Virus record (IMG/VR): IMGVR_UViG_3300008453_000586
Source: a virus
Taxonomy: Duplodnaviria > Heunggongvirae > Uroviricota > Caudoviricetes
Length of the DNA stretch: 64,000 bases
Reading direction: 5' to 3' (one strand)
Shown here: positions 3,117 to 64,000 of the stretch, one piece after another
Numbering within the stretch: position 1 is the first letter of the stretch
Layout: every line of letters starts with the position of its first letter
Notes under the pieces: generated by a model
Told to the model about the DNA's origin: nothing
Database searches by the model: none
What the model saw: the letters and a program-made list of their open reading frames with translations, nothing else
Translations under genes and position numbers: made by a program

Positions 3117-3163
3117 CCAGGTAAATAATTCATATAAAAGTTGCAAAATACACAATTTTGTAG

Positions 3164-17126: not shown

Positions 17127-17741
17127 ATGAGTTTAATCAAATTACAAGAAAAAATCGGAGTAAAAGCCGATGGGGCTTTTGGTCCTGGAACATTAAAAGC
17201 TGCAATGGCTTACTACAAATTAACCCCAGAAAGAGCTGCACATTTTTTTGCACAATGCGGACATGAAACAGGTAATTTTAAAGTATTCACTGAAAACCTT
17301 AATTATTCTGCACAAGGGTTACAAGGTATCTTTGGAAAATACTTCCCTGGAAACTTAGAAGAATCCTATGCACGTCAACCAGAGAAAATCGCATCTAGAG
17401 TTTATGCTGACAGAATGGGTAACGGTAACGAAGCGTCAAAAGACGGTTGGAAATTCCGTGGCAGAGGTGCTATTCAACTTACTGGTAAAGACAACTATAA
17501 ACAATTCTCTGAAAGTATTAAAAGACCTGATATTTTGACAAACCCTGATATTGTAGCTACTGAATTGGCTTTTGAATCAGCTAAATTTTTCTTTGATAAA
17601 AATAAATTATGGTCAATCTGTGACCAAGGGGTTAATGATGCTTCAATATTAGCATTAACAAAAAGAGTTAACGGTGGTACACATGGTTTAGAGGATAGAA
17701 ACGAAAAAACTAAAAAATACTACGGTTGGTTAAAAGCGTAA
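17127..17741 (+). CDS. GH19 (class I chitinase-like) endolysin
   Basis: FFAQCGHETGNF matches the GH19 catalytic motif; size typical of phage endolysins. Confidence 0.75.
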   Translation: MSLIKLQEKIGVKADGAFGPGTLKAAMAYYKLTPERAAHFFAQCGHETGNFKVFTENLNYSAQGLQGIFGKYFPGNLEESYARQPEKIASRVYADRMGNGNEASKDGWKFRGRGAIQLTGKDNYKQFSESIKRPDILTNPDIVATELAFESAKFFFDKNKLWSICDQGVNDASILALTKRVNGGTHGLEDRNEKTKKYYGWLKA

Positions 17742-27315: not shown

Positions 27316-28035
27316 ATGAATTACACACAAGAATTTAAAGACTATGCTATTAAGCATATGGGAATATCTGGTATAGATTTCCACAATTGGGAACAACTTC
27401 AAGAAAAAATCTATGGTGCACAAGCTCCTTTGATTACAACTGGTCCGTCAGCATCTTTGACACCATATATCCTTGAAGAAAGAGAATTGAGGGTGACTCA
27501 AATGGATATCTTTTCCAGAATGATGATGGATAGAATCATTTGGTTGGCTGGTCCAGTTAACGATAGAATGAGCACTGTAGTACAAGCACAGTTATTGTTC
27601 TTGGACAATTTAGAATTGAAAGACATCACCTTGCACGTAGACAGTCCAGGTGGTTCCGTTAAATCAGGTTTGTCAATCGTAGACATTATGAACTACGTTA
27701 AATCCGATATCATCACAATCAACACTGGTATGGCTGCTAGTATGGGTAGCATCCTTTTGGGTGCTGGGACCAAAGGTAAGAGATTTACGTTGAATTTCAG
27801 TCGCGTAATGTTACACCAAGTATCAAGTGGTGCGCAAGGTACTATTCAAGACATCGAAATCTCATTGGCAGAAGCTAGAAAATACAACGAACTTTTGTTT
27901 GGTTTGTTAGGTCAATATACTGACAAAGACCCAGCACAAGTTAAAATAGATGCTGACAGAGATTTATGGTTAAATGCGGAAGAAGCTAAAGCTTACGGTA
28001 TTGTTGATGATATAATCATAAACAGAAAGAAATAA
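27316..28035 (+). CDS. clpP: ATP-dependent Clp protease proteolytic subunit ClpP
   Basis: HVDSPGGSV and GMAASMGS (catalytic Ser) motifs, then MLHQ (catalytic His). Confidence 0.85.
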   Translation: MNYTQEFKDYAIKHMGISGIDFHNWEQLQEKIYGAQAPLITTGPSASLTPYILEERELRVTQMDIFSRMMMDRIIWLAGPVNDRMSTVVQAQLLFLDNLELKDITLHVDSPGGSVKSGLSIVDIMNYVKSDIITINTGMAASMGSILLGAGTKGKRFTLNFSRVMLHQVSSGAQGTIQDIEISLAEARKYNELLFGLLGQYTDKDPAQVKIDADRDLWLNAEEAKAYGIVDDIIINRKK

Positions 28036-37256: not shown

Positions 37257-37716
37257 TTATAAACAACAACCTACTGGAAATACATGCGGTCCAACATGTA
37301 TATACATGGCTTTAAGATATGTTATGAACAAACCAAACGATTTACCGTTTGATGTTGAAATTTCAGACACAGTAGAGAAAATTGCTGAAGCATGCGGTAC
37401 TGATTGGGTGGTAGGAACACCACCAGATAAAATGATTAAAGGATTCGAAGCGTGTAACTTAAAATACATCGAATACATTCACTCTCCAAGACCTTTTGAT
37501 TTACTTAAACAAGTTATCGACTCAGATAATATACCAATTGTTAGAACAATAACACACGGTGTCCCACATTGGATAATAGTAAACGGATACAGTGAACAAC
37601 ACTTCGACATATTAGACCCATGGCAAGGAATAATCAAATATACACCAAAACAACTTAACGATATTTGGATGGTCAGAGACTATCAATTTTTTGAAATTAT
37701 TACAGATGCAGATTAA
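37240..37716 (+). CDS. C39-like (papain-fold) cysteine peptidase, putative
   Basis: YKQQPTGNTCGPTCIYMAL (Q...CG.aC catalytic Cys motif) and PHWIIVNGY (HyVV His motif). Confidence 0.45.
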   Translation: MMITISYKQQPTGNTCGPTCIYMALRYVMNKPNDLPFDVEISDTVEKIAEACGTDWVVGTPPDKMIKGFEACNLKYIEYIHSPRPFDLLKQVIDSDNIPIVRTITHGVPHWIIVNGYSEQHFDILDPWQGIIKYTPKQLNDIWMVRDYQFFEIITDAD

Positions 37717-38149
37717 AAAAGGAATACCAGAAGAATTAATAAATGATGTCTTAGAGTTTTCATACCCATACTTTAATCATCTTATGAGCAAATATATTTA
37801 CGAAGAGTATTTAAAATCAGTAAGCAATTGGGGTATATCATCTTTGCTACTTAATGAAGATGGAAAAATATTAGGCGTTTATTTATTAGGTAATCATCAA
37901 ATAACAGATTTTGTAACAGCATCAAAATATGATAACCTAGTAGGTGTTGAAGGAGTATTGTTGGTGGTAGATTCTACAATAAGAGGAATGGGTTACGGAA
38001 ACAAATTAAAAGATTACCCAAAAACACTAGGTGTTGACTATATTTGGGGTCAACAGTTCAAAGGTTTAAAAAATCTTGACGATTGGTTAAAACGCAGAGA
38101 ATTGGTCGCTACAACATCAGAAGTTTATATAACAGCTGAAATTTTTTAA
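37691..38149 (+). CDS. GNAT family N-acetyltransferase, putative
   Basis: VVDSTIRGMGYGNKL resembles GNAT motif A (R/QxxGxG/A). Confidence 0.45.
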   Translation: MKLLQMQIKKGIPEELINDVLEFSYPYFNHLMSKYIYEEYLKSVSNWGISSLLLNEDGKILGVYLLGNHQITDFVTASKYDNLVGVEGVLLVVDSTIRGMGYGNKLKDYPKTLGVDYIWGQQFKGLKNLDDWLKRRELVATTSEVYITAEIF

Positions 38150-38179
38150 AAAAAACTTGCACAGTATTTGAACTTTTTG

Positions 38180-38187
38180 TATCTTTG
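38180..38187 (+). promoter_or_regulatory. -7 box TATCTTTG with -33 TTG (aaacTTGcacag)
   Basis: Upstream of a small basic ORF. Confidence 0.45.
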
Positions 38188-38209
38188 CACATATTTAATA
38201 ATAAAAGAT

Positions 38210-38323
38210 ATGTCATCACATAAAAGGAAAGCACATTCTAGAGTTATTGAAACAAGAAAAGGTACTACAAACAGTAGAAAAACAGTCCAAGTATCAAGAA
38301 CAACAGTAAAAAGAAAAAAATAG
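38210..38323 (+). CDS. small highly basic protein (37 aa, below the ORF-track cutoff)
   Basis: MSSHKRKAHSRVIETRKGTTNSRKTVQVSRTTVKRKK with its own promoter. Confidence 0.3.
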   Translation: MSSHKRKAHSRVIETRKGTTNSRKTVQVSRTTVKRKK

Positions 38324-38366
38324 AAAAAAAAGTTGCAAAAAACTTGACTTGTATTAAATAAGTTCG

Positions 38367-38374
38367 TATATTTG
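38367..38374 (+). promoter_or_regulatory. -7 box TATATTTG with -33 TTGact at 38344-38346
   Basis: aacTTGacttgtattaaataagttcgTATATTTGcaaag. Confidence 0.5.
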
Positions 38375-38537
38375 CAAAGAATTTAAAAACAACATAAAAA
38401 ACAAAACAAAATGAGAACAATTAACATACATATGATTTCGATTTCGAATTGGAGACGCAATAGTCACCAAGTGTCGGGTATGTCTAATTGTGACATCATA
38501 GAGTTCTAGTAAGAATTCAAAAGATAACAATATACAA

Positions 38538-38569
38538 CCCGATGAGTGAAAACTTAATCGGGTTTTTTT
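38538..38569 (+). terminator. rho-independent terminator
   Basis: Stem cccgat/atcggg followed by a T-run. Confidence 0.55.
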
Positions 38570-38580
38570 ATTTTAAGACT

Positions 38581-38760
38581 ATGGGTGAGTTGGTAAGAAA
38601 ATTAGGAACAGAGAAAACTGTAAACCTTACAAAAGATTTCGACCTGATAGTCGATAAGTACAGAAAGATAGCTGATGCCAGTGGTTATCACGGTGAGCTA
38701 AAGTTTCAAAAAGAAGGTGGGTTCACCGTAATCTTTGTAGAGATTAAAACGGACGAATAA
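38581..38760 (+). CDS. hypothetical protein
   Basis: ATG 38581 in frame with track ORF 38542 (which starts inside the terminator hairpin). Confidence 0.3.
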   Translation: MGELVRKLGTEKTVNLTKDFDLIVDKYRKIADASGYHGELKFQKEGGFTVIFVEIKTDE

Positions 38761-38763
38761 ATT

Positions 38764-38850
38764 GGAGAGGTAAGCAGAGTTGGCCTAACTGCAACGGTCT
38801 TGAAAACCGTAGGCCCCAGAGGTGTGTGGGTTCGAGTCCCACCCTCTCCG
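38764..38850 (+). tRNA. tRNA-Ser (anticodon TGA), type II
   Basis: Acceptor ggagagg/cctctcc, anticodon stem acggt/accgt with loop cuUGAaa, long variable arm, T-arm gtggg-TTCGAGT-cccac. Confidence 0.75.
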
Positions 38851-38920
38851 CAAAAATTTACACATGCGGTGAATAACGGTGATAATCACCGCAAAAATGC
38901 GGTGAATGTAAATTAAACAT

Positions 38921-38996
38921 GGTGGCTATAGCTCAGTTTGGTTAGAGCGTCTGATTGTGGTTCAGAAGGTCGTGGGTTCGAGCCCCACTAGTCACC
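38921..38996 (+). tRNA. tRNA-His (anticodon GTG) with G-1
   Basis: G-1 then gtggcta/tagtcac acceptor, D-stem gctc/gagc, anticodon stem tctga/tcaga with loop uuGUGgu, T-arm gtggg-TTCGAGC-cccac. Confidence 0.7.
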
Positions 38997-39004
38997 CAAA
39001 ATAC

Positions 39005-39092
39005 ACATGGTGTTTGTAGTACGTAACGGTAGCGAGTCTGGTTGTGAGCCAGATGACAGAAATGTCCTTGCGGGTTCGAGTCCCGTCTTTCA
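39005..39092 (+). tRNA. degenerate tRNA-like element (canonical T-arm and 3' acceptor strand; 5' acceptor unpaired)
   Basis: T-arm gcggg-TTCGAGT-cccgt followed by ctttcac+c. The only 5' partner, gtgtttg, leaves three U·U mismatches. Anticodon-like hairpin tctgg-uuGUGag-ccaga. Confidence 0.25.
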
Positions 39093-39099
39093 CCCTAAA

Positions 39100-39197
39100 T
39101 TTATCACGTGAGTCAAAAGAGTAAACTGGGTACTGACTGCTGTAGTGAAAACGGTAACCCGAGAAGGGTGTAAAGGTTCGAATCCTTTGGTGATAAA
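39100..39197 (+). tRNA. oversized tRNA-like element (about 97 nt), perfect 7-bp acceptor ttatcac/gtgataa and T-arm but no clean D/anticodon arms
   Basis: T-arm taaagg-TTCGAAT-cctttg; internal 66 nt do not fold into a standard cloverleaf. Confidence 0.25.
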
Positions 39198-39203
39198 TTA
39201 AAT

Positions 39204-39275
39204 ACTTCGCTGGTGAAATGGCTATCATCTTGGTCTCCAAAACCAAGGTTTCAGGTTCGAGTCCTGAGCGGAGTG
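39204..39275 (+). tRNA. tRNA-Trp (anticodon CCA)
   Basis: Acceptor acttcgc/gcggagt, D-stem gtga/tcat, anticodon stem ttggt/accaa with loop cuCCAaa, T-arm tcagg-TTCGAGT-cctga. Confidence 0.7.
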
Positions 39276-39284
39276 CTAAAACAT

Positions 39285-39357
39285 AGGCGTGTGGTGAAAT
39301 TGGTTATCACGCAAGACTGATACTTTTGTATTTCGAGTTCGAGTCTCGACATGCCTA
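39285..39357 (+). tRNA. tRNA-Ile (anticodon GAT)
   Basis: Acceptor aggcgtg/catgcct, D-stem gtga/tcac, anticodon stem caaga/ttttg with loop cuGAUac, T-arm tcgag-TTCGAGT-ctcga. Confidence 0.7.
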
Positions 39358-39362
39358 CAAAC

Positions 39363-39446
39363 TGTGATGTGGATGAATGGTTTAGTCACCAGCCTGATAC
39401 GCTGGGTGTTTATAACACAATGTGGGTTCGAGTCCCACCGTCACAA
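39363..39446 (+). tRNA. tRNA-like gene with long variable arm and GAT-containing anticodon loop (identity uncertain)
   Basis: Acceptor tgtgatg/cgtcaca, anticodon stem ccagc/gctgg with loop cuGAUac, variable-arm hairpin gtgtt-tat-aacac, T-arm gtggg-TTCGAGT-cccac; D-arm imperfect. Confidence 0.45.
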
Positions 39447-39454
39447 CAATATAA

Positions 39455-39528
39455 GGTCCTCTGGCGCAATTGGTTAGCGCAGCGCGCTCATAACGCGACG
39501 GTTTCGGGTTCGAGTCCCGAGGGGACCA
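39455..39528 (+). tRNA. tRNA-Met or Ile2 (anticodon CAT)
   Basis: Acceptor ggtcctc/ggggacc, D-stem gcgc/gcgc, anticodon loop cuCAUaa, T-arm tcggg-TTCGAGT-cccga. Confidence 0.7.
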
Positions 39529-39637
39529 CACCCTATCAAATGGTGTAACCACGGGTAAAAACAGCATTGCTGGCGAGTAGGCCAGAGGCGCACCGTAATT
39601 GTGGTACTCGGTGTATTGATAAAAATACAATATAAAT

Positions 39638-39709
39638 TCTCCTTTCGTATAATGGTAATTACGCTGGGCTGTTAACTCAGATATCTAGGTTCGAGCCCTA
39701 GAGGGAGAG
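39638..39709 (+). tRNA. tRNA-Asn (anticodon GTT), copy 1
   Basis: Acceptor tctcctt/agggaga, anticodon stem ctggg/ctcag with loop cuGUUaa, T-arm ctagg-TTCGAGC-cctag. Confidence 0.65.
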
Positions 39710-39722
39710 CAAAATATTAAAT

Positions 39723-39796
39723 TCCTCAGTAGCTCAGTTGGTTAGAGCAACGCACTGTTAATGCGTGGGTCCTAGGTTCGAATCCTAGCTGGGGAG
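39723..39796 (+). tRNA. tRNA-Asn (anticodon GTT), copy 2
   Basis: Acceptor tcctcag/ctgggga, D-stem gctc/gagc, anticodon stem acgca/tgcgt with loop cuGUUaa, T-arm ctagg-TTCGAAT-cctag; resembles the canonical bacterial tRNA-Asn. Confidence 0.75.
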
Positions 39797-39808
39797 CAAA
39801 ATAAATAT

Positions 39809-39882
39809 TCTCTCGTAGCTATAACGGTCAGAGCGGTGAGTTGTTAACTCAAGGGTTACAGGTTCGAATCCTGTCGAGAGAG
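39809..39882 (+). tRNA. tRNA-Asn (anticodon GTT), copy 3
   Basis: Acceptor tctctcg/cgagaga, anticodon loop uuGUUaa, T-arm acagg-TTCGAAT-cctgt. Confidence 0.65.
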
Positions 39883-39895
39883 CAAAATAAAAAAT

Positions 39896-40060
39896 ATGGA
39901 AAAGACAAGTGAAGCTGATATGCAGCGTCTTTATGACTACATGGATAAAATGGGTGTTACCTATACGGTAGACCGAAATCCAAGTCCAGAAAAGATTGCT
40001 AGAATCAAAGCACAAATTGAAAGAAGCCGCAGGTTATTGGAAAACGTTCATCCCTCATAA
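39896..40060 (+). CDS. small protein (54 aa) encoded inside the tRNA array, below the ORF-track cutoff
   Basis: MEKTSEADMQRLYDYMDKMGVTYTVDRNPSPEKIARIKAQIERSRRLLENVHPS; protein-like composition with a C-terminal helix. Confidence 0.35.
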   Translation: MEKTSEADMQRLYDYMDKMGVTYTVDRNPSPEKIARIKAQIERSRRLLENVHPS

Positions 40061-40100
40061 AGATGAATAATCGGGTTCGACTCCCGAATGCGGTACAGCT
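40045..40100 (+). tRNA. tRNA 3'-half-like remnant (CAU loop, T-arm, acceptor 3' strand)
   Basis: tcatc-ccucauaaa-gatga hairpin followed by tcggg-TTCGACT-cccga and atgcggt; no matching 5' half; overlaps the end of the 54-aa ORF. Confidence 0.2.
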
Positions 40101-40140
40101 ATTGCGACATTAATCACGACATTGTGTCGCAATAAAAATT

Positions 40141-40214
40141 GGCCACGTGGCGCAACTGGATAGCGCACCGCATTACGACTGCGGAGGTTGTAGGTTCGAA
40201 TCCTACCGTGGTCA
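40141..40214 (+). tRNA. tRNA-Arg (anticodon ACG)
   Basis: Acceptor ggccacg/cgtggtc, D-stem gcgc/gcgc, anticodon stem ccgca/tgcgg with loop uuACGac, T-arm gtagg-TTCGAAT-cctac; preceded by a 9-bp hairpin (40101-40133). Confidence 0.75.
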
Positions 40215-40222
40215 CAACAATT

Positions 40223-40296
40223 GGCTCCGTAGCTCAGATGGATAGAGCAACAGATTTCTAATCTGTGGGTCACAGGTTCGAGCCCTGTCGGAGTCA
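40223..40296 (+). tRNA. tRNA-Arg (anticodon TCT), copy 1
   Basis: Acceptor ggctccg/cggagtc, D-stem gctc/gagc, anticodon stem acaga/tctgt with loop uuUCUaa, T-arm acagg-TTCGAGC-cctgt. Confidence 0.75.
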
Positions 40297-40305
40297 CAAA
40301 CAAAT

Positions 40306-40378
40306 GCCTCTATCGTTCAACTGGATAGGACATGGCTCTTCTAAAGCCGTAATTGGGGTTCGAGTCCCTGTAGGGGTA
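40306..40378 (+). tRNA. tRNA-Arg (anticodon TCT), copy 2
   Basis: Acceptor gcctcta/taggggt (two G-U), D-stem gttc/ggac, anticodon stem tggct/agccg with loop cuUCUaa, T-arm tgggg-TTCGAGT-ccctg. Confidence 0.6.
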
Positions 40379-40386
40379 CAAAATAT

Positions 40387-40471
40387 GGAGAGTTGCCAGA
40401 GTGGTTATTGGAGCGGTTTGCTAAACCGTGGCCTCGAAAGGGGCCCGTGGGTTCGAATCCCACACTCTCCG
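40387..40471 (+). tRNA. tRNA-Ser (anticodon GCT), type II
   Basis: Acceptor ggagagt/actctcc, anticodon stem gcggt/accgt with loop uuGCUaa, long variable arm, T-arm gtggg-TTCGAAT-cccac. Confidence 0.75.
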
Positions 40472-40490
40472 CTGAATTTTCCTTTGAAAC

Positions 40491-43717: not shown

Positions 43718-45130
43718 TTAAACATTAATATTTTTTATTAATGTAATGTCAATGTCTGTAATTTTGCTAACTTGGTTATCATTGAATCCATAAATTTTAT
43801 TAGTGAAACTACCCGAAGATGTAATAGTTATTGTTTGTTGTAAATCATTATAACCAGTTGCACTTTCCCATAAACCTATATTTGCTAATTGAATAGAATA
43901 TGCTGGCATATCTTCTAAACCAGCATTTTTATCTGAAATATGTAAATATAAATCATACGTATCATCAGGTACATCATTAGGTATGTTAAAATTAAAACTA
44001 TTACTACCTTTATTCAAAGTTCTAAAATCCTTATCCAAAAGTCTTTTATACTCAACGTTTAAAGCATTTCTTAAAACTATATAAACTTTTTTCTCAAATA
44101 AAATTTTAGCATAACCTACGTTATTTATATTTAGTGTTAAATTATTACCGTTTAGTGTAGATGATGATAATACTAATCGATAACCCATATTTTTTAATAT
44201 TTCATCATAATAACCTTGAGCTATCCAACCATCCCAAACTGGTAGGTAATAATCTCTATTTATAACACTAAAATTTAATAAGTTAAATTCATAGGTTGCG
44301 TTGACACCACTAGTTCTTAACCCTCCATTACAAGAATTAAAACCATTTGATTCTCCAGTGTTAGGTAAATAAATACCAGCATTAGATATCAAATCGTAAT
44401 CAACACTACCAACTGGGTTAGTACATTGACCAATAATTTCATAAGTACCTTGGTCTCCATAACTATTTAGTAAAGCATCGTTATAAAAACCAATACGAGC
44501 CAATGGTGTGTTTTGATAAGCTGTTAAATTAGATATTAAAGTTGAACCGTACATTTCTCTTTTAGCTTTAGCTGTTCTTAATTGAATTGGTACATCTTGA
44601 AAATTGTTTAACATAGCATCAACAACATTTTGTCTATTCAACCATTGGCTTGGAGATACATTGCTTTGGTCTCCAAATTCAGTACTACTATCAGTGTAGA
44701 ACCATTCTCCATATAAACCAATAGAACCAGCTTGTATAGACAATATAACATCTTTATTTGCATTTATCGTACTTGATAACGCCTCTATATGGGCTATAAT
44801 TCTACTTTTTGAAGGTTGTGTGCTAGCTGTTGTTGTTATATTATAAGCAATTCTAGGAATTACTTTAACACCAGCATTTCTTATTCTAGTAAAATCTGTT
44901 TGTAAATTATTTAAATAAGTAGAATCTATGATATCAGTATTCATATAATTTTCTAACATTATATACCTATATAAAACAGTTATTTTATCACTACCTGTTC
45001 TATTATTTATTAATGTTGTTTGGTTAATGAGAGAATAAGAACCTCCACTTGTGTTTTTAGAATATTTTTGCAAACCCCTTTCAGGGTTTGCAATAATAGA
45101 TGTGGATGCTGTATAATTAACTGTTGTCAT
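43718..45130 (-). CDS. structural protein, probable tail fiber/receptor-binding protein (possibly with glycoside-hydrolase-like domain)
   Basis: 470 aa, N/S/T-rich, in an operon with a collagen-like tail fiber; an IPRIAY...GLYGEWF segment hints at a TIM-barrel hydrolase-like region (weak). Confidence 0.35.
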   Translation of the reverse strand: MTTVNYTASTSIIANPERGLQKYSKNTSGGSYSLINQTTLINNRTGSDKITVLYRYIMLENYMNTDIIDSTYLNNLQTDFTRIRNAGVKVIPRIAYNITTTASTQPSKSRIIAHIEALSSTINANKDVILSIQAGSIGLYGEWFYTDSSTEFGDQSNVSPSQWLNRQNVVDAMLNNFQDVPIQLRTAKAKREMYGSTLISNLTAYQNTPLARIGFYNDALLNSYGDQGTYEIIGQCTNPVGSVDYDLISNAGIYLPNTGESNGFNSCNGGLRTSGVNATYEFNLLNFSVINRDYYLPVWDGWIAQGYYDEILKNMGYRLVLSSSTLNGNNLTLNINNVGYAKILFEKKVYIVLRNALNVEYKRLLDKDFRTLNKGSNSFNFNIPNDVPDDTYDLYLHISDKNAGLEDMPAYSIQLANIGLWESATGYNDLQQTITITSSGSFTNKIYGFNDNQVSKITDIDITLIKNINV

Positions 45131-45136
45131 GATATC

Positions 45137-47854
45137 TTAAACTATTTCTATCCAAGTATTATCAGGGTTAAAATAAATAGTATCATTAACGCTATCTATA
45201 CAATATCCAATAACCCTAACCACTTCATTTGAACTTGAAGGAGCTGTTGTTTGGAAAAAACCGTTTGTAGTACTTAAATATAAAACATCACCAGTACCAA
45301 CACTTGAATAATTCCCTACAGCGTATCTAGCGTAACCTTTAATCAATATACCATCTGTTATTGATGTACCCAACGCAATTCCTATTAAATATTTTGATGA
45401 ACTAACGGTTGTTGCGTTAGCTACTGTCCATTGCCCTGAACTATTGAAATAATAAATCAAACCAGCCGATAACCCTGAACCTGTACCAAAATAAACTATT
45501 TCACCAGTAGAACCAGTACTACTTGGTAAAGTAATCTTAGTGTTAGGGTTAGTAAAAGTACCACCACTAATAGATGTTCCAGTCATCCCAGTTATTTGAC
45601 TTAAATTAACCGCTTCGTTAGCAGAACTTCCATTAGGTATTATTACTTTACCACCTGTTACTTCAATTGCTCTAAAATCAAAAGCTGAAGTTAATGTAGG
45701 TGCAATTCTAACACCATGGATAATTGATGATGTAGAACCTGTTTGATTTATTGTAGGTTCTAAATTAATCATTCTAATTGCTGTTCCACCTGTAACTGGG
45801 TTTATTGTATAGTTTTGATGAATAACATTTTGAGTGGCCCCAGTAATTGTCCAACTAGGATATATTGGTATAAATTCAAAAAGATTACCATTTGGATTAT
45901 AGGCCCTAAATTTTATACTACTCCCAGTATCACTATACATACCAGTAGCATCATCAGCAAAGAAGTAACCATTAACACCTTTTACTCTATAAGAACCAAT
46001 TATACCTACATCCCCATTAACAAATAATTTATTTGTTAATACCTTGGTACTGGTATCAGTATTTGCGTTGATTAGTACTTTATCTGAATAATAAATACTA
46101 GAACCAGTAGCACTCCAATAAGATGATTGCCCACTAACTACATTTCCATTAACATCTACGCCTAAATTATTTATAGATGTTCCAGTAAATAAATTTTTAA
46201 TATTTAATCTATCAACATATGTTGTATTTGATGTTAACCCAGTAATATTATTACCCAAAACAATTGTACTTGACCCAACAGCTAGTGAATTACTACCATG
46301 TACAAATGAAGTTTCTCCATTAGCAATAGATTGACTACCACCAGCATGTGAATAATTACCATTTGCGGTTGTCAAACCACCTTCAGCGTGTGAATAGTTT
46401 CCACTTGCTAGAGTTTCTGACCCTTCAGCGTGTGAAGCTTCACCAGATGCTGTTGTTTGTAAACCTTCAGCATGGCTAAAATCACCATTAGCTGCTGTAC
46501 TATCACCTTCAGCATGTGACGCATAACCATTTGCAATTGAAACAGAACCTTCAGCATGACTTGCTTGACCTATAGCAATCGCAAAAGAACCTTCAGCATG
46601 ACTATAATCACCACCAGCCGTTGTGTTAGCACCTTCAGAGTGACTTGTAAAACCAGATGCTGTTGTAAAGAATCCTTCAGCGTGAGCACCATTATTATCA
46701 GCTTTTGTTTGATAACCTTCAGTGTGGCTATAATCACCATTTGCTGTTGTTTGAAGACCTTCAGCGTGTGCGCTATTACCATTAGCTGTTGTACTACTAC
46801 CTTCAGCGTGACTACCACTACCACCATTAGCCAATGTAGCTACACCTTCAGCGTGTGCATAGGTCCCATTAGCTATTGTAGCATAACCTTGAGCATGCGT
46901 ATATTGACCTTGTGCTCTTGTTAGATAACCTTCAGCATGTGAATAAATACCCGTAGCTCTTGTACCACCACCTTCAGCATGAGATGTGTTACCACTAGCT
47001 GTTGTACCATTACCTTCAGCGTGTGAATAATTTCCAATAGCTTTAGTTTGATAACCTTCAGTGTGTGACATTTGACCACTAGCTGTTGTTAAATAACCTT
47101 CAGCGTGTGATACAGGACCAGATGCTAACGTTGACCAACCTTCAGCGTGTGCTACCGTGGTAGTAGCAGATGCTTTATAACCTTCAGCATATGAGTACAT
47201 ACCGCTAGCAAGTGTTTGACTACCAATAGCAAAAGCGTAATCTCCAGTAGCATCCAAACCAGTTGCATTAATTGCTTTTATCGAACTAATACCAGTTGAA
47301 CCAGATACGAAATAAGAAATTGTTGTTGCTGTGTTGGCTGGACCTTGAGGACCTGTAGGACCTGTAGGGCCTTGAGGACCTGTTGCTCCTTGAGCAGCTA
47401 ACAACGCCCAACTAGCTGTATCAACAGTAGGGTCATCGTTACCAGTACCTGAAACAGGGTTATAACAGAAATATGAAGCACCACTAAAACCTACAGCGTC
47501 ATTAATATTATAAGATGTGTCGCCATCCCAAAGACCTTGCCATAGCAAACCAGCAGGGCCTACTGCACCATCAGGACCTGTAGGACCTGTAGGACCTGTA
47601 GGACCTGTAGGACCTTGAGGTCCTGTTAGTCCTTGAATACCTTGAGGACCTTCAGGACCTGTAGCACCAGGCAAACCATCAGCACCAGCTGGACCCACAG
47701 GTCCTTGAGGTCCACCATTTACGTAAGGGATAATTCCAGTTGCGAAAGTATCGAAAGTTACTTGAGTTGTAATTCCATTAGTAACAACTGGTAAAATGCT
47801 AGCCATATCTAATGAACCAACGGGTAATTGACTAATTTTTTTGTCTACTGCCAT
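45137..47854 (-). CDS. tail fiber protein with collagen-like region and about 25 SHAEG beta-repeats
   Basis: About 40 consecutive G-x-y triplets near the N-terminus ([49 protein letters not shown]); central roughly 300 aa of repeated xSHAEGxxTxAxG units. Confidence 0.65.
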
Positions 47855-58317: not shown

Positions 58318-58352
58318 AAAAAAAAATATTTGGTGATTTAAAATTATAATTG

Positions 58353-58360
58353 TATATTTG
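58353..58360 (+). promoter_or_regulatory. -7 box TATATTTG
   Basis: attgtatatttgtcaaaaattatttaaaATG. Confidence 0.45.
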
Positions 58361-58376
58361 TCAAAAATTATTTAAA

Positions 58377-59666
58377 ATGATTACAAAAGAAAACGGATTA
58401 AGATACGCTAAACTGATTCACGTGTCGGTAGACAACGGTAAAACAGACAATAGCAACAAAGTCTACATTATGGAAGAACTTTCAGATGGTAGAATCAAAT
58501 GTGAGTATGGTAGAGTGGGCAAAAACATGGCTACCGTGTTTAAGAGTAAAAACGAGTGGGATAAAATATTACGAGAGAAAACTTCATCAACAAAAGGTTA
58601 CACTGATGTAACTGAGTTGTTGGCTGAGCCAGTAGTGGATGATTCTAACGCTGCATCAAAAAATAACACCGTTGAAGCAATCAAAGACGCGATGGTTAAG
58701 AAATTGGTTCAAGACCTTATGGCATACGCGAATAAGTCTATCCAGAAAAACTATAAAGTAACGCAAGATGCGGTTTCTGAACAACAAGTGGAATCAGCTC
58801 AAGAAGTTCTATCTAGAGTAACTGCGATGTTGAAAGTTGGTGGTGACCTTAAAGACGTTAACAACGAGTTGTTGAAGCTTTACACAATCATACCAAGAAA
58901 GATGGACAACGTTAAAAACCACTTGGTTCAAGGGTTGGGTGATGATGTTGAATTAGAGAAAGCTCAAAGGTTGTTAGGTGAGGAACAAAGCGCGTTAGAC
59001 ACAATGGCTGGTCAGGTTAAACTTATCAAACAACAAAAACAAACTGTTGAAACCACTGGTAAAGAAATGTCAGACATCGACATTCTTACTCAAATGGGTC
59101 TTAAAGTTGAAGTTGAGAAAGATACTGAAACACTTAATCTTATCACAAAATTATTGGGTGATAACGCCAATAAAGCTAAAAAGATTTTCAAAGTGGTTAA
59201 CTTGGCTACACAAGCTAAGTTTGATGCTCACTTTAAAACTGCCAAAGTTAAAAAGAAAAGACTTTACTGGCATGGTTCACGTAACGAGAACTGGTTTAAC
59301 ATTATTCAGACTGGTCTTATGATTAGACCTTCTGGCGCGGTGTATACTGGTTCAATGTTCGGTGACGGTGTATATTTTGCAAACAAGAGTCAAAAATCGT
59401 TAGGGTATAGTTCTCTGTCAGGTTCTCATTGGACTAGAGGGAACTCTCAAGTAGGTTTCTTGGCTTTGTTCGATGTACATTTAGGAAACGAGAAACACAT
59501 TCACAAACATGATTCATCGTGTTATAGTTTGAGTTACTCTAACATCCAAAAGGATGGTTTTGATAGCGTATACGCTCACGGTGGTGCTGACTTGAGAAAT
59601 GATGAGTTTATCATTTACAATCCAGTACAATGTACAATTTCTCACTTAATACAAATGGAACACTAA
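58377..59666 (+). CDS. PARP-like ADP-ribosyltransferase with N-terminal WGR-like domain
   Basis: WGR-like KVYIMEELSDGRIKCEYGRVG; catalytic H-Y-E-type core YWHGSRNENWFNIIQTGLMIRPSGAVYTGSMFGDGVYFANKSQKSLGYS (HGS, GxGxYFA, SxxY). Start set at ATG 58377. Confidence 0.55.
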   Translation: MITKENGLRYAKLIHVSVDNGKTDNSNKVYIMEELSDGRIKCEYGRVGKNMATVFKSKNEWDKILREKTSSTKGYTDVTELLAEPVVDDSNAASKNNTVEAIKDAMVKKLVQDLMAYANKSIQKNYKVTQDAVSEQQVESAQEVLSRVTAMLKVGGDLKDVNNELLKLYTIIPRKMDNVKNHLVQGLGDDVELEKAQRLLGEEQSALDTMAGQVKLIKQQKQTVETTGKEMSDIDILTQMGLKVEVEKDTETLNLITKLLGDNANKAKKIFKVVNLATQAKFDAHFKTAKVKKKRLYWHGSRNENWFNIIQTGLMIRPSGAVYTGSMFGDGVYFANKSQKSLGYSSLSGSHWTRGNSQVGFLALFDVHLGNEKHIHKHDSSCYSLSYSNIQKDGFDSVYAHGGADLRNDEFIIYNPVQCTISHLIQMEH

Positions 59667-59875
59667 TGGATTTTAGTTTAAACGAAAAAGAAAAACAAAA
59701 CTTAAAAGAAGTTGAAGACGCTGTTAAAACATTATACGGTCATGAGACTCACTACACAAGAACGTTTTGCTTTACACCAACTGGTATTGGTGATAACATT
59801 GAAGTTATTATAAAAAGCAAAGAAAAAGGATTGTTTGAAGTTAAAAAAGATATAACCGACTACGATAGTTGGTAA
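59666..59875 (+). CDS. hypothetical protein
   Basis: ATG 59666 in frame with track ORF 59630; overlaps the PARP-like stop. Confidence 0.3.
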   Translation: MDFSLNEKEKQNLKEVEDAVKTLYGHETHYTRTFCFTPTGIGDNIEVIIKSKEKGLFEVKKDITDYDSW

Positions 59876-59886
59876 AATAAAAGAAA

Positions 59887-60609
59887 ATGGAACAAATGGA
59901 ATTAAAAACACCTTATCAATGGTGTTTAGAACTTAACATTAGGGTCTTGAACCTTAATGAATGGCCACTAGAGTGGTATGGGTCGAAAGAAAAACATTAT
60001 TTTACATTTCCAACAATGCCGAAGGATGAATTTCTTGAAGCATTGTCACAATGTAAAGTAAAAGCCAACTCGATGCCAAGAAAAACTGAAATGTATTTGG
60101 AATACAGAATGTATGGACTTGTACCTTACAACTTAAGTCCAATTCAACAAGGAATACAATTTGGACACGCTGTGGTAGAGTATCAACAAAACGTTAGAAA
60201 CTTACCACCACATGAAGCTATTTACAACAAATGGGCTCAAAAAGATAAAACATTTATCATTCTTAATGGTGGTACGACAAACAACACCCCAGATAAATTA
60301 GGAAGTCTTAATCAACATTTAGCAACCCTTAATAACCTAGGTTTGTTGACATCTGAGTTCTACGAACCAGACTTAGGTGACCAATTAACAGCTGTAGTGT
60401 TCTTGGTAGATGAAAGAGTATTTAACAGAGAAATGTATCCAGATTTCCAAGAAGAAAAGCTACCATATGGTGTTCGCAAACCATCCAAAAAAGCAATTAT
60501 TGAATTAGAAGAACGTAACGTGAATAATTACCATAAATGGGTTGAAAAGATTGGTGGAGCAGAAAATGCTTTTCTTAGAGAGTTTTTGAAACCACTTAGG
60601 TTAGCGTAA
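59887..60609 (+). CDS. hypothetical protein
   Basis: 240-aa ORF directly downstream of the PARP-like gene. Confidence 0.35.
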   Translation: MEQMELKTPYQWCLELNIRVLNLNEWPLEWYGSKEKHYFTFPTMPKDEFLEALSQCKVKANSMPRKTEMYLEYRMYGLVPYNLSPIQQGIQFGHAVVEYQQNVRNLPPHEAIYNKWAQKDKTFIILNGGTTNNTPDKLGSLNQHLATLNNLGLLTSEFYEPDLGDQLTAVVFLVDERVFNREMYPDFQEEKLPYGVRKPSKKAIIELEERNVNNYHKWVEKIGGAENAFLREFLKPLRLA

Positions 60610-60639
60610 CGTTTACATATTACTCTGGTTTTCGTATAA

Positions 60640-61041
60640 TTGTATATGACAACCAGAGATAAATATGATTTAATAAACAAATACATTACCAAAAACTATA
60701 TCATACAAGATAATAGGTTTTGGGATAAACACGACCCACATGAGGTAAAAGGAAGTGACGTTACCTCATCATTAATCACAATATTCCAATATACCAAAGA
60801 ATATTGCGATTATTGTTTAAAGAGATGGGCACTTAACAACGGGTTACCTGAAAAAGAGTGGGGTGGAGCTTATTGGAGAGGATTAAGAGTCTCATGGACA
60901 CCAGAAATGGCTCAAGATTTACGAGCCTTCCATAACATAGATGCAGAAGCCGAATTAACAGCATTGTTGTCTCATGAAATCGCGCATGAGATAGATACAG
61001 AAATACTTAACAATTTATTTGGATTACGACGTGAAGAATAG
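60640..61041 (+). CDS. hypothetical protein with HExxH-like motif
   Basis: SHEIAHEID near the C-terminus. Confidence 0.3.
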   Translation: MYMTTRDKYDLINKYITKNYIIQDNRFWDKHDPHEVKGSDVTSSLITIFQYTKEYCDYCLKRWALNNGLPEKEWGGAYWRGLRVSWTPEMAQDLRAFHNIDAEAELTALLSHEIAHEIDTEILNNLFGLRREE

Positions 61042-61555
61042 AATAACACTTACTGGCAAGATTGAGTTTGAGCCAGAAGACAAGACAAAAAAACACATGA
61101 ATCAAGCCGCATGGAAAAAAATGGCTATGGTTCTTATAGATGGAGAGATTTGCGAATACTACGCATGGTTCATCAAAAAGAGATACAACTTGGTATTGAA
61201 TAAACCTCTTAGAGGGGCCCACATTTCGTTTATTAACGACAGCATGAAGGATTTGACTCAAAACGGGGAAAAGTCCGAGGAAGAAGCTCTAAATGCGTGG
61301 GAAGCTGCTAAGAAGAAATGGCACGGTAAGAAAATTGAAATAGTGTTGGATTTAAACCCAAGAAGTGACGGTAGAAGCTGGTGGTTGAATATCCCAAACG
61401 AAGAACGAGATGGGTTACAAGCCATCAGAAGTGAAATAGGTTTAGGTAGACCATTTTTTGGGATGCATATGAGCCTTGGGTACGCTAATGAAAAGAACAT
61501 AGAACACTCGGAATACCTACATAATATGATGATAAAAGGGTTTATTTTAACTTAA
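61019..61555 (+). CDS. 2H phosphoesterase superfamily protein (CPDase/LigT-like), putative
   Basis: Two H-x-S-x motifs (GAHISF and GMHMSLGY) about 80 aa apart. Confidence 0.4.
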   Translation: MDYDVKNRITLTGKIEFEPEDKTKKHMNQAAWKKMAMVLIDGEICEYYAWFIKKRYNLVLNKPLRGAHISFINDSMKDLTQNGEKSEEEALNAWEAAKKKWHGKKIEIVLDLNPRSDGRSWWLNIPNEERDGLQAIRSEIGLGRPFFGMHMSLGYANEKNIEHSEYLHNMMIKGFILT

Positions 61556-61587
61556 AATTTTTACCAAAAAACACTAAGTTTTTAAAA

Positions 61588-62874
61588 ATGTGGACTATTT
61601 ATATTTTAGAATGTAATAGCCCACATTTGTTTTTAAATATGATATCAAAATATAAAGTTTCGCTAATAATTTCTATATTAATTTTTTTAGCATCTTTTAC
61701 CGTACAGTCTTTATTACTTTTAAATGTAATTCAATATTCAAAATTTTTAGGTTATTTTGAATTAATATGTTTTATAACTTTTTTCATACCTTTTTATTTT
61801 TTCATAAAAGGTTTTAACAATAAAATAAGACGCAAAGAAAATGAATTTTCCAATAGAATGGACGCGATTAATAAATCGAATGCGGTTATTGAGTTTAATT
61901 TAGATGGTACGATAATTTTTGCAAATGAATTATTTTTAAATACATTAGGGTACGAAAATCAAGATGAAATTGTAGGGAAGCATCACAGTTTATTTGTTCA
62001 AGATGGTGTAAAAGACACTAAAGAATATGAACACTTTTGGGAAACACTTAAAAAAGGTGAATTTTTTACTGGTGAAATTATCAGAAAGAAAAAAAATGGT
62101 GATTTAATTTATCTTCAAGCGACATACAACCCTATCTTTGGGAATAACGGTAAATCTTACAGAGTAATGAAAATAGCTACTGATATTACCGAAAAAATTA
62201 ACCAACAATTGGAGATTGACAAGAAAAACACATACCTAGAACATGCTGCCAAGATATTAAGACATGATATGCATTCTGGTATTAATACATACATACCTAG
62301 AGGTGTATCATCTTTAGAAAGAAGATTAACCCCAGAAATCATAGAATCGGCAAAATTAGAAGCACCTTTAAAAATGATAAAAGAAGGTTTGAAACACACC
62401 CAAAAAGTTTATAAAGGTGTGTATGAATTTACCAACTTGGTAAAAACTGATGTGGTTTTAAGTAAAACTGAATGTAGTATCCAAAAAATAATGGATGATT
62501 ATTTAACTTCCACCGCTTACAAATCACAAGTATATTTAGATGATAATTTACCTACAATCGAAGTCAATGAATCTTTGATGTGTACATCTATTGATAATTT
62601 AATTAGAAATGGTTTAAAATACAACGATAGTAAAAGCAAACTTGTTAAAATTTACAGTGAAGATGGTTATATTTGTATTGAAGATAATGGTAGGGGTATT
62701 GACCAGAAAGATTTTGATGAACTTTCAAAACCTTACGTTAGAAAAGAAGGTCAAAAAGAAACAGGTACTGGGTTAGGACTTAATATATGTAAAGCGATTT
62801 TAAAAGAACATGGTTTTGATATCACAGCTGAAAAGTTAGAACAAGGTACAAAATTAAGAATAAAAATAAAATAA
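61588..62874 (+). CDS. sensor histidine kinase (TM, PAS, HisKA, HATPase_c)
   Basis: N-terminal TM segments; PAS (IEFNLDGTIIFANELFLNTLGY); H-box LEHAAKILRHDMHSGI; N/G1/G2 boxes NLIRNGLKYN, EDNGRGID, GTGLGLNICKAIL. Confidence 0.75.
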   Translation: MWTIYILECNSPHLFLNMISKYKVSLIISILIFLASFTVQSLLLLNVIQYSKFLGYFELICFITFFIPFYFFIKGFNNKIRRKENEFSNRMDAINKSNAVIEFNLDGTIIFANELFLNTLGYENQDEIVGKHHSLFVQDGVKDTKEYEHFWETLKKGEFFTGEIIRKKKNGDLIYLQATYNPIFGNNGKSYRVMKIATDITEKINQQLEIDKKNTYLEHAAKILRHDMHSGINTYIPRGVSSLERRLTPEIIESAKLEAPLKMIKEGLKHTQKVYKGVYEFTNLVKTDVVLSKTECSIQKIMDDYLTSTAYKSQVYLDDNLPTIEVNESLMCTSIDNLIRNGLKYNDSKSKLVKIYSEDGYICIEDNGRGIDQKDFDELSKPYVRKEGQKETGTGLGLNICKAILKEHGFDITAEKLEQGTKLRIKIK

Positions 62875-62900
62875 ACAAAAAAACAAAAACAAAAACAAAA

Positions 62901-63338
62901 ATGATTAACTCTATTTTATTAGTGGATGATGAAGATTTATTCCACTTAGTATTTGAAGACGCATGTAGTCTTTTAGACATAACGCTTTCCTTAGAAAGTT
63001 TAGATAGTGCTGACACAGCTGAAACCATGTTCAAAGATTGGAACGAAAACGCTGATACTTCAAACAAACCAGAATGTGTGTTTGTTGACTTAAATATAAT
63101 TGGTTCATCTTATGATGGTATTGAATTGATTAGAAAAATAAATTTTGATTACGGTAACAATGTTGTTATCGGTATTATTTCATCTAGTGATGAAGCCAAC
63201 GAGCAAGCAAAAGCAATTCAAGCTGGTGCACAATTTTGGATTATCAAATCAGATGAAATTGAACCTAGACTTGAAGAGTTTAGAAAAGATTACGAAGGTT
63301 ACAAAAACAAAACCAACCCATTTAAAATCTATAGATAA
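62901..63338 (+). CDS. stand-alone response-regulator receiver domain protein
   Basis: ILLVDDEDL (acidic pocket), VFVDLNI (phospho-acceptor Asp), conserved Ser/Lys positions; no output domain. Confidence 0.6.
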   Translation: MINSILLVDDEDLFHLVFEDACSLLDITLSLESLDSADTAETMFKDWNENADTSNKPECVFVDLNIIGSSYDGIELIRKINFDYGNNVVIGIISSSDEANEQAKAIQAGAQFWIIKSDEIEPRLEEFRKDYEGYKNKTNPFKIYR

Positions 63339-63994
63339 TGATTAAAATAGATAAAAAAACAAAAGAACAATTAATCCAACTCCATCAAACAAAAAAAATA
63401 TCTTTAGAAGGTAATATATTGAAAGTTATTGATGTTGATGGTGATGTTGAATTTCAAAATTATGTTAATGAATCTATAGAAAAAGACAACGCAACCAGGA
63501 AAAAACGTTTAGAAATAACCAAACAAATTCAAAAACAAAACAAAGAGTTAACCGATTGGAAAACTGAAAATGAACGAATTAATGGTGAACTACTCGAAAC
63601 ACTAGAACTTAATAGAGTTGCTATTGTTGAAGCTGAAAACGCAAAAGAAGAAGCAGAGGCATCCAAGGACAAAGCTGAGAAATCAATGATTGAGGCTATG
63701 ACAGCAAGAGCTGAAGCTGAAAACGCAAAGGCCAACGCTGAAAATGATTTAGAGTTAATTCAAAAGAAATCTCAATTCGAATTAATTGGGACAATAGTTA
63801 AAGTAGCTCTTTGGGTTATTATGGGTGTTGGTGTAACAACCACACTTATGTTTTTAATTGCGTTATTTGCTGGTGTTGATACTAGTGTTATTGGTTCGAC
63901 ATGGAGTAATATAATAGGAATACTACTAACCAATGCTTTTAGTATTGTCGGCACAATTATGGGAGTAAAATATGCCTCCGAAAAAAATTCTTAA
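63338..63994 (+). CDS. coiled-coil protein with C-terminal transmembrane segments
   Basis: 218 aa; E/A/K-rich coiled coil then two hydrophobic helices. Confidence 0.35.
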   Translation: MIKIDKKTKEQLIQLHQTKKISLEGNILKVIDVDGDVEFQNYVNESIEKDNATRKKRLEITKQIQKQNKELTDWKTENERINGELLETLELNRVAIVEAENAKEEAEASKDKAEKSMIEAMTARAEAENAKANAENDLELIQKKSQFELIGTIVKVALWVIMGVGVTTTLMFLIALFAGVDTSVIGSTWSNIIGILLTNAFSIVGTIMGVKYASEKNS

Positions 63995-64000
63995 AATATA

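Follow-up and report, generated by a model that had tools for sequence, protein, structure and literature searches.

A three-gene kinase, receiver and membrane-hairpin module of an uncultivated large phage that may tune the timing of host lysis

The DNA examined here is a stretch of 64,000 nucleotides (nt) from a tailed phage (IMG/VR record IMGVR_UViG_3300008453_000586), referred to below as the window. Toward its 3′-end lie three consecutive plus-strand genes: a sensor histidine kinase of 428 amino acid residues (61588–62874), a single-domain response regulator, or receiver, of 145 residues that begins 26 nt after the kinase (62901–63338), and a protein of 218 residues, here named DN218, which is probably the output protein (63338–63994) and whose start overlaps the receiver stop in the sequence TAATG. 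The original prediction, made from the letters alone, described the first two open reading frames as a two-component system, and their coordinates and spacing are exact; the DN218 gene was overlooked. The pair is complete, and that it is encoded by a phage is borne out by the phage genes and 17 tRNAs of the window (tRNA cluster 29722–40472, ARAGORN) and by the occurrence of the receiver on more than 570 viral contigs of IMG/VR, among them 3300031951_000001 (322 kb) and 3300027996_002186, the latter at 483 kb equalling the greatest length observed.

The kinase was delimited by Pfam matches, sequence motifs and a structural model. It opens with a two-helix membrane anchor (residues 21–77; 61648–61818), for which hydropathy gives segments at residues 21–49 and 53–77, and continues with a cytoplasmic PAS domain (residues 98–203; 61879–62196), a dimerization and histidine phosphotransfer (DHp) domain (residues 205–290; 62200–62457) and a catalytic ATP-binding (CA) domain (residues 291–428; 62458–62871). 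Of the four Pfam families for which a search had been proposed, PAS (PAS_9/PAS_3, residues 98–203), HATPase_c (residues 334–427; 58.8 bits against a cutoff of 26.4) and Response_reg were matched and the HisKA type was not; no NCBIfam kinase equivalog reached its cutoff either. In the AlphaFold model two membrane helices at the N-terminus, connected by hardly any loop outside the membrane, are followed by the PAS domain, a helical hairpin (predicted helices 206–246 and 258–285) and an α/β ATP-binding domain. Foldseek revealed a resemblance to the PAS-DHp-CA kinases WalK, YF1 (4gcz), VicK, HK853 and RpBphP2, with E-values down to 1e-17, and phmmer aligned residues 199–414 to the kinase domain of RpBphP2 (8f71), placing His226 (62263–62265) on the histidine of its SHD motif. 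It is on this alignment, the predicted helical hairpin and the Foldseek matches that the assignment of the H-box, and with it of His226 as the phospho-accepting residue, is based. Among 46–48 distinct homologues the H-box (R-H226-DMHSGIN), the N box (DNLIRN341GLKYN), G1 (D366NGRGI) and G2 (G393TGLGLN) are invariant, as are the GHKL boxes N341, D366xGxG370 and G393xGxG397 in 46 sequences, and the description of a membrane-anchored PAS kinase with complete H, N, G1 and G2 boxes is therefore accurate.

The receiver matches Response_reg (PF00072) over residues 5–117 (35.3 bits against a cutoff of 30.2) and no other domain, in agreement with its earlier description as CheY-like and devoid of an output domain. 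Solved relatives in PDB are 3ilh and 4zyl, and the predicted phospho-acceptor, Asp63 (63087–63089), aligns with the acceptor Asp of 3ilh. Across 54 distinct homologues none of the five receiver signatures varies, these being the acidic pocket (D9/D10), D63, S95/96, W113 as the aromatic switch, and K116. Neither a degenerate H-box nor a receiver lacking its Asp, the two defects named as fatal to the original prediction, is present, since His226 and Asp63 are both invariant. All 120 receiver homologues listed have 143–148 residues and match PF00072 alone, from which we conclude that there is no version with an output domain. Against eleven relatives, the ratio of nonsynonymous to synonymous substitution rates (dN/dS) lies between 0.11 and 0.21 for the kinase and between 0.03 and 0.14 for the receiver, and spans 0.03–0.24 over kinase, receiver and DN218; the kinase and receiver are thus functional genes and not chance reading frames. 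Judged from these residues and this selection, they very probably constitute a functional cognate pair.

The nature of the signal can only be guessed at. By similarity the PAS domain comes nearest to MmoS (3ewk), Aer (8dik) and NifL, which are FAD-binding redox sensors of the "S-box" class, and a redox or energy cue would be our guess; the flavin-binding motif of Aer, which we take to be RHPDMP, is absent. The sensor regions of the kinases differ even among close relatives, and four types can be distinguished. Type 1, to which the window kinase belongs, has the two-helix anchor and one PAS domain in 417–438 residues; type 2 is PAS-PAS with about 530 residues; type 3 is GAF-PAS-PAS, soluble or membrane-anchored, with 645–728 residues; and type 4 is a second paralogue in which a signal peptide, a domain of about 200 residues outside the cytoplasm, a coiled coil and one transmembrane helix precede the DHp domain. 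The type 4 paralogue is found between the PAS kinase and the receiver (L025:3958-5999, L043:4025-5991, L071:3938-5996 and L012:4595-5986), usually has a gene for a secreted protein of 200–218 residues ahead of it, and may sense the periplasm or the outside. Some relatives have two kinases per genome, and the paralogues of one genome have only the DHp-CA core in common, at 56–61% identity. Mean pairwise identity is 93% for the first DHp helix, 83% for the receiver, 71% for the catalytic domain, 63% for PAS and 59% for DN218, and whichever sensor domain the kinase has, the first helix of the receiver stays the same. The near identity of the first DHp helix beside such variable sensors indicates that the kinase–receiver interface is kept constant while the inputs are exchanged. 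One receiver would, on these comparisons, take its input from several sensors.

Two irregular arrangements were encountered among the relatives. In some, a gene for a GIY-YIG/NUMOD3 homing endonuclease of 240 residues splits the module between the last kinase and the receiver (L044:3518-4240, L051:3324-4046 and L063:5273-5995). The 483-kb contig (L070) has no kinase within 6 kb of its receiver; the genes upstream, which include two on the minus strand at 361–1086 and 2037–2651 of that locus, specify a protein resembling a nucleotidyl cyclase, as judged from its sequence alone, an M50-like membrane protease with the motif HEMAH, and very Cys-rich proteins.

The third gene, DN218, is the constant companion of the receiver. 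A homologue accompanies it in all 142 related loci taken from IMG/VR, nearly always overlapping it or a few nt away, and the kinase is upstream of the receiver in 129 of them; every other family of neighbouring genes is conserved in half of these loci at most. AlphaFold2 models DN218 with a pLDDT (predicted local distance difference test) score of 83 as a small N-terminal domain, a continuous helix (residues 37–178) that enters the membrane, and a further membrane helix (residues 183–216), and the hydrophobic segments fall at residues 146–188 and 192–210. For the comparisons below we divided the protein into DN_N, consisting of the N-domain and the first part of the coiled coil (residues 1–110; 63338–63667), and DN_C, the C-terminal transmembrane hairpin (residues ~146–212; 63773–63973). 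The last helix, GILLTNAFSIVGTIMGVKYAS, is almost invariant and is the best-conserved part of the protein; judged from the alignment, this conservation exceeds what a plain membrane anchor would need. DN218 has no match in Pfam, PHROG, NCBIfam or PADLOC and no significant fold match in PDB, and neither DN_N nor DN_C alone matches anything in Pfam at E ≤ 10. A role in defence or anti-defence was considered and rejected, since PADLOC gave no match for the kinase, the receiver, DN218, the upstream protein of 178 residues or a PARP-like protein that is also upstream. From its association with the receiver, it is fairly probable that DN218 is the output of the module and that it acts through its N-domain.

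The clearest indication of what the two halves of DN218 may do came from a profile search with this protein covering 1.84 billion representative proteins, which returned only 269 clusters, a few of them with longer proteins. Among the latter, P0432 and P0426 carry two PAS domains, with PAS about 50% identical to that of the kinase, joined to the coiled coil and hairpin of DN218; in P0375 the same hairpin is joined to a GAF domain; and in P0458, P0502 and P0509 the N-domain (residues 1 to ~100) is joined to a HisKA-HATPase core. Genes of the PAS-PAS plus DN_C type (e.g., L186:5950-7113) are present on at least 253 IMG/VR contigs, and of the GAF plus DN_C type on at least three. In every one of the 83 such one-component loci examined, no kinase core, receiver or DN_N lies within 5–6 kb, in contrast to the two-component loci, where receiver and DN_N occur together in 142 of 142. 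Because sensor domains are fused to DN_C where receiver, kinase core and DN_N are all missing, the simplest reading is that the hairpin would be the regulated output, with DN_N as the adaptor for the phosphorylated receiver, dispensable when the sensor is fused directly.

The fusions also led to a cellular homologue. Scans of viral and metagenome contigs with P0458 gave nothing useful, but P0512, a member of the P0502 cluster, lies on a contig (L315) of 100.9 kb and 40% GC that carries substrates of the type IX secretion system with Por_Secre_tail domains, CreD, and HD and HAD hydrolases, and which looks like a Bacteroidota chromosome. The uncharacterized operon found there (L315/L316; ENA MEHR18 scaffold_731) has the gene order and TAATG coupling of the phage module. 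Its kinase, with three PAS domains and no membrane anchor where the window kinase has one PAS and an anchor, is 54% identical to the latter across PAS-DHp-CA, and the H-box, AKILRHDMHSGIN, is the same in both. The receiver of the operon, of 143 residues, is 72% identical, with 26 of the first 27 residues the same. The third gene has a DN_N that is 43% identical over residues 1–89, fused to a second kinase core (HisKA-HATPase), whereas in the phage the N-domain is carried on the transmembrane hairpin; the GC content of the phage window is 33%. That the linkage of receiver and DN_N is constant while the output differs supports a receiver-to-DN_N step. By these measures the phage module appears as a relative of a bacterial kinase, receiver and N-domain system whose last gene has a different business end, a bacterial origin that the original prediction overlooked. 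A scan of species-representative genomes with peptide patterns of the window kinase had missed this homologue, yielding only a 48% PAS similarity in Bacteroidota.

The function of the hairpin is best approached through its neighbours. Among the one-component loci an endolysin gene is present in 69 of 80, within 1 kb in 65 and within 100 nt in 26. These endolysins are of four unrelated types, namely GH19 (phrog_181), PG_binding_1 with phrog_3000, Phage_lysozyme (phrog_7) and Peptidase_M15_3 (phrog_894), and Phage_holin_4_1 and small proteins with two transmembrane segments also occur in these loci. In the GAF form the order is GAF-DN_C, a protein with two transmembrane segments, a protein with one, and GH19. 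Of 103 distinct two-component modules, 64 have an endolysin gene within 1.5 kb, and the number rises to 73 when holin-like genes are counted as well and the distance is extended to 3 kb; among the 99 with enough flanking sequence, the endolysin is immediately downstream on the same strand in 25. Typical orders are those of L071, where the kinase, receiver and DN218 genes are followed by PG_binding_1+GH19 and Phage_holin_10, and of L091, where DN218 is followed by Peptidase_M15_3. We estimate that a random gene in a genome of at least 200 kb would lie within 1.5 kb of an endolysin gene in a few percent of cases. The window phage itself has a candidate GH19-type endolysin (17127–17741, plus strand; Glyco_hydro_19, 30.6 bits against a cutoff of 25.5), which has a BLAST match to an endolysin adjoining one-component homologues; in many relatives such an endolysin is directly downstream of DN218. 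Only 6 nt of the window follow DN218. In a relative that is 95% identical (L004), the next gene is convergent and codes for a small protein with two transmembrane segments, of an uncharacterized family that also occurs in the one-component cassettes.

Taken together, these observations lead us to propose the following scheme. The membrane-anchored kinase would use its cytoplasmic PAS domain to sense a cue from inside the cell, autophosphorylate on His226 and hand the phosphoryl group to Asp63 of the receiver. The phosphorylated receiver would then dock on the N-terminal domain of DN218, its co-translated neighbour, as their co-occurrence suggests, and the signal could run along the long coiled coil of DN218 to the C-terminal transmembrane hairpin. 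The hairpin, to judge from the genes around it, would be an element of the lysis cassette, most probably antiholin-like or otherwise holin-modulating, which tunes the moment at which the host lyses. With small holin-like genes already present in the cassettes, the role of such a modulator is likelier for DN218 than that of the holin itself. It is a small membrane protein, as is expected of a holin or antiholin; its 218 residues, with a cytoplasmic part of about 145, make it larger than typical holins. The original prediction had suggested that the pair times phage development, and the comparative context narrows this to the timing of lysis, a reading of the three-gene module to which we give moderate confidence. 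A broader proposal is more tentative, namely that DN_C defines a widespread and hitherto unrecognized class of signal-gated lysis regulators in aquatic phages of Bacteroidota, with the hairpin modulating holin triggering. Equally tentative is its corollary that the inputs to this class are interchangeable, being either a directly fused PAS or GAF domain or a His-Asp step derived from the host in which one receiver integrates several kinases, some of them sensing the periplasm.

Several facts count against this scheme. The only recognizable endolysin of the window is 44 kb upstream of the module, the Phage_holin_10 gene of L004 sits 4.3 kb downstream of it, and approximately 30 of the 103 modules have no recognized lysis gene within 3 kb. 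Searches of Pfam, PHROG, NCBIfam and PDB linked DN_C to none of the described families or folds of holins and antiholins. At the other end of the pathway, no HisKA-type DHp model of Pfam matches the kinase, whether the whole protein is searched at E ≤ 0.01 or residues 205–300 at E ≤ 1. All of the support is comparative. As regards the distance between module and endolysin, in the sub-lineage that includes the window the module has shifted away from that gene.

Among the competing explanations, the one that survives best is that the phage pair, being a copy of a Bacteroidota pathway, cross-talks with the version of its host and that DN218 is secondary. The phage receiver could act on a host DN_N-kinase or draw phosphate away from the host kinase, or it could itself be phosphorylated by that kinase, any of which would be in keeping with the earlier suggestion that the pair titrates phosphoryl flux in a host pathway. 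The identity of the H-box AKILRHDMHSGIN in the Bacteroidota kinase, and the agreement of its receiver in 26 of the 27 N-terminal residues that form the specificity surface, compared with 72% overall, are what one would expect from such cross-talk. It nevertheless leaves unexplained why DN218 is co-translated alongside the receiver and present in 142 of 142 loci, why PAS and GAF domains are fused to DN_C where there is no receiver at all, and why the genes are linked to lysis genes; moreover, the scan of species-representative genomes with window-kinase peptide patterns disclosed no close homologue. We therefore regard host cross-talk as unlikely, if worth keeping in mind.

A second explanation accepts the signalling module as real and gives it a membrane output other than lysis, such as superinfection exclusion, membrane remodelling, an ion leak or a function related to the proton-motive force; the clustering would then merely bring together late genes for membrane proteins. 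The dissimilarity of DN_C to every holin and antiholin family fits this explanation, as do the separate small holin-like genes already present in the cassettes and the roughly 30% of modules, those of the window lineage included, that are not beside an endolysin. What speaks for lysis instead is that endolysins of four unrelated catalytic types are linked to the hairpin in both architectures, which are independent of each other, whichever side or strand of the module they occupy; this is the classic signature of a lysis-cassette component, and that chance proximity (within 1.5 kb in a genome of at least 200 kb) is estimated at a few percent; a non-lytic output accordingly seems to us distinctly improbable. 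That the genes are an inert passenger or an assembly artefact, either mis-binned bacterial genes or a functionless moron, can be dismissed as extremely improbable, for although a cellular homologue exists and the matches in GenBank "phages" are mostly unannotated bacterial-looking fragments, the genes fit the phage in GC content (30–34%), strand and tight packing, are flanked by phage genes in both the window and L004, occur on more than 570 viral contigs under strong purifying selection, and include an output gene that is phage-specific, with a transmembrane hairpin in place of the kinase core.

Turning from the favoured lysis-timing role to the expression of the module, the 26-nt spacer between kinase and receiver, ACAAAAAAACAAAAACAAAAACAAAA (62875–62900, plus strand), is an A-rich leader without a Shine-Dalgarno sequence. 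It had been taken for an (AAAAC)4 repeat at 62876–62898, which is incorrect; the letters are a run of A followed by approximately three CAAAAA hexamers. Tandem Repeats Finder reports an imperfect period-6 A-rich array at 62850–62902, which reaches into the 3′-end of the kinase gene. A similar A-rich leader of 2–26 nt, again lacking a Shine-Dalgarno sequence, occupies the kinase–receiver junction of every relative, and in the 95%-identical L004 it measures 19 nt. Slipped-strand switching was considered here and set aside; although the length does vary, the variable stretch falls outside both reading frames, after one stop codon and before the next start, and no relative departs from its A-rich composition. 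A Bacteroidota-style leader is the simpler reading.

Promoter-like sequences point in the same direction. The motif GTAT[AC]TTTG occurs 22 times in the window, where 2.1 occurrences are expected; 20 are on the plus strand, and the sites lie mostly 20–40 nt 5′ of start codons (e.g., at 3163, 25343, 26397, 41942, 48177, 48855, 52296, 54286 and 58352). We take this motif to be a promoter element on the assumption that the −7 consensus of the Bacteroidota sigma-A is TAnnTTTG. Sigma-70 promoters are not enriched in the window. The phage encodes an RpoD-like sigma factor of its own (8697–9530), which might read the motif in place of the host sigma-A. The nearest such box upstream of the module, GTATATTTG (58352–58360, plus strand; it matches TAnnTTTG), overlaps the annotated beginning of a gene for a protein with a PARP catalytic domain (58350–59666; Pfam E=2e-24, phrog_23333) located 3 kb upstream of the kinase. 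The position of the box suggests that the true start of the PARP-domain gene is the ATG at 58377. On the plus strand from 58352 to 64000 there is no terminator-like site with a convincing T-tail, and it is possible that the box opens a transcription unit running from the PARP-like gene through the kinase and receiver to DN218.

The remainder of the window, in which nearly all genes are on one strand, includes genes for a primase, an exonuclease and a gp46/47-like SbcCD, ClpP (27316–28035; Pfam E=1.5e-57), a CCA-adding enzyme, a polynucleotide kinase, two RNA ligases, a DNA ligase, a spore-photoproduct lyase and a tail-fibre-like protein, in addition to the PARP-domain protein and the GH19 endolysin. 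Since the −7-type motif is enriched and the leaders lack Shine-Dalgarno sequences, the host of this large phage is probably a member of the Bacteroidota. No close relative is present among the GenBank phages, and a megablast search of window positions 58–64 kb against them was empty. A receiver 100% identical to that of the window was encountered only on contigs of about 1 kb. The distribution of the receiver in IMG/VR indicates that the module is carried by a widespread, uncultivated lineage of large phages. The moraphages are freshwater phages with Bacteroidota hosts, the core genes of which include a sigma factor and Clp (PMC12619734); the paper that describes them makes no mention of kinases. 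In habitat, host and gene content the lineage studied here may be related to them.

Several other features of the window deserve mention. The tRNA at 33376–33448 has the anticodon CTA of a TAG suppressor (labelled "Pyl" by ARAGORN), and TAG terminates seven of the 59 long open reading frames; recoding of stop codons, a possibility prompted by this tRNA, was rejected, since no long plus-strand reading frames are linked by an in-frame TAG. Three class-I tRNAs are unusually long, namely those for Met (30369–30455, 87 nt), His (39010–39095, 86 nt) and Ile (39363–39447, 85 nt). The sole sizeable block of minus-strand genes (43718–47854), with a GC fraction of 0.41 compared to 0.33 elsewhere, holds a DUF4874/DUF4832 protein of 469 residues and a tail-fibre-like protein of 905 residues, and may be a swapped host-recognition or depolymerase cassette. 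Just upstream of the module, residues 80–127 of a 133-residue open reading frame (60640–61041) correspond to a central part of Gp23, the major capsid protein of T4 (Pfam E=7e-15, phrog_138). This reading frame, which is also kept in L004, may be a fragment of a capsid protein retained as a separate small gene.

Pairs of this kind had been called unusual in phages, and the searches agree. There is no credible homologue in 50,697 GenBank phage records: tblastn with the receiver was empty, and the matches to the kinase were weak and derived from unannotated or probably bacterial fragments. The literature searched contained no phage-encoded kinase and regulator pair and no holin or antiholin with a sensor domain, and the words kinase, sensing and two-component are absent from a 2026 review of jumbo phages. 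The parts of the module are ordinary; as far as we could find, their arrangement, a host-related two-component system apparently hard-wired to a novel lysis-associated hairpin, with one-component equivalents in other phages, has not been described.

No life-history decision of a lytic phage weighs more than the moment of lysis, and we know of no control over it, among holin clocks, antiholins and T4 lysis inhibition, that employs modular sensor domains or phosphotransfer. If the proposed scheme is correct, lytic phages would work out when to lyse by reading the internal state of the host together with extracellular or superinfection cues, by what would amount to a two-component analogue of T4 lysis inhibition, and a large group of uncultivated aquatic phages (more than 570 contigs with the receiver and more than 250 of the one-component type) would feed signals into lysis. 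A single-domain response regulator would gain an identified partner domain, DN_N, in both bacteria and phages, and the two architectures, in which the same sensor and output are joined either directly or through a kinase and receiver, would represent an experiment in rewiring carried out by evolution. Small and modular as it is, the module could become a tool for signal-controlled lysis.

Receiver folds have been found before in very large phages. A 2021 survey of jumbo phages by Iyer et al. mentions a single receiver-like domain, the divergent cREC, which according to its authors never occurs with histidine kinases and is associated with NAD+/ADP-ribose enzymes (PMC7824862). Although the window has a PARP-domain gene 3 kb upstream of the kinase, its receiver falls outside the definition of cREC, since it matches PF00072 and is 26 nt downstream of a kinase. 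A phage kinase without such a partner is also on record. The temperate Clostridioides difficile phage phiCDHM1 reportedly carries agrB, agrC and agrD and no response regulator. Its agrC is a sensor histidine kinase gene (PMC3901668) of a different kinase class and, unlike the window module, has no link to lysis.

Compared with classical class I kinases such as YF1 (4gcz), HK853 and RpBphP2 (8f71), the window kinase has the same PAS-DHp-CA architecture; it differs in being encoded by a phage and in a DHp domain too divergent for the HisKA models of Pfam. CheY, DivK, Spo0F and phytochrome-associated receivers of the Rcp1/RphyB type are, like the one described here, single-domain proteins, and they act by protein–protein contact; the lack of an output domain leads us to predict the same for the phage receiver. 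The partners of the classical systems are a motor, a kinase or a phosphotransferase, whereas the partner proposed here is a novel membrane protein.

Two-component control of lysis-like functions is known from bacteria. In the Firmicutes, LytSR is coupled to the holin/antiholin-like membrane proteins LrgAB and CidAB (PMC6997555), and in Yersinia entomophaga a lysis cassette is under PhoB-like control (PMC10101115). These systems are bacterial and operate at the level of transcription through DNA-binding regulators; the phage receiver has no DNA-binding domain, and its coupling to DN218 would be direct. The window module has no homology to LytS, LytR, LrgA or LrgB.

The closest functional parallel is offered by the antiholins of other phages. 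In the lysis inhibition of T4, the holin T is restrained by the antiholins RI and RIII, and comparable proteins are S107 of lambda and LydB of P1. DN218 has no sequence or fold similarity to any of them, and an input by PAS or GAF domains or by a His-Asp step is undescribed for antiholins in the literature searched. The logic proposed for the module is nonetheless the same, in that a protein in or near the lysis cassette would take a signal and modulate the firing of the holin, and the paralogous kinases of relatives, which may sense the periplasm, recall the periplasmic sensing by T4 RI.

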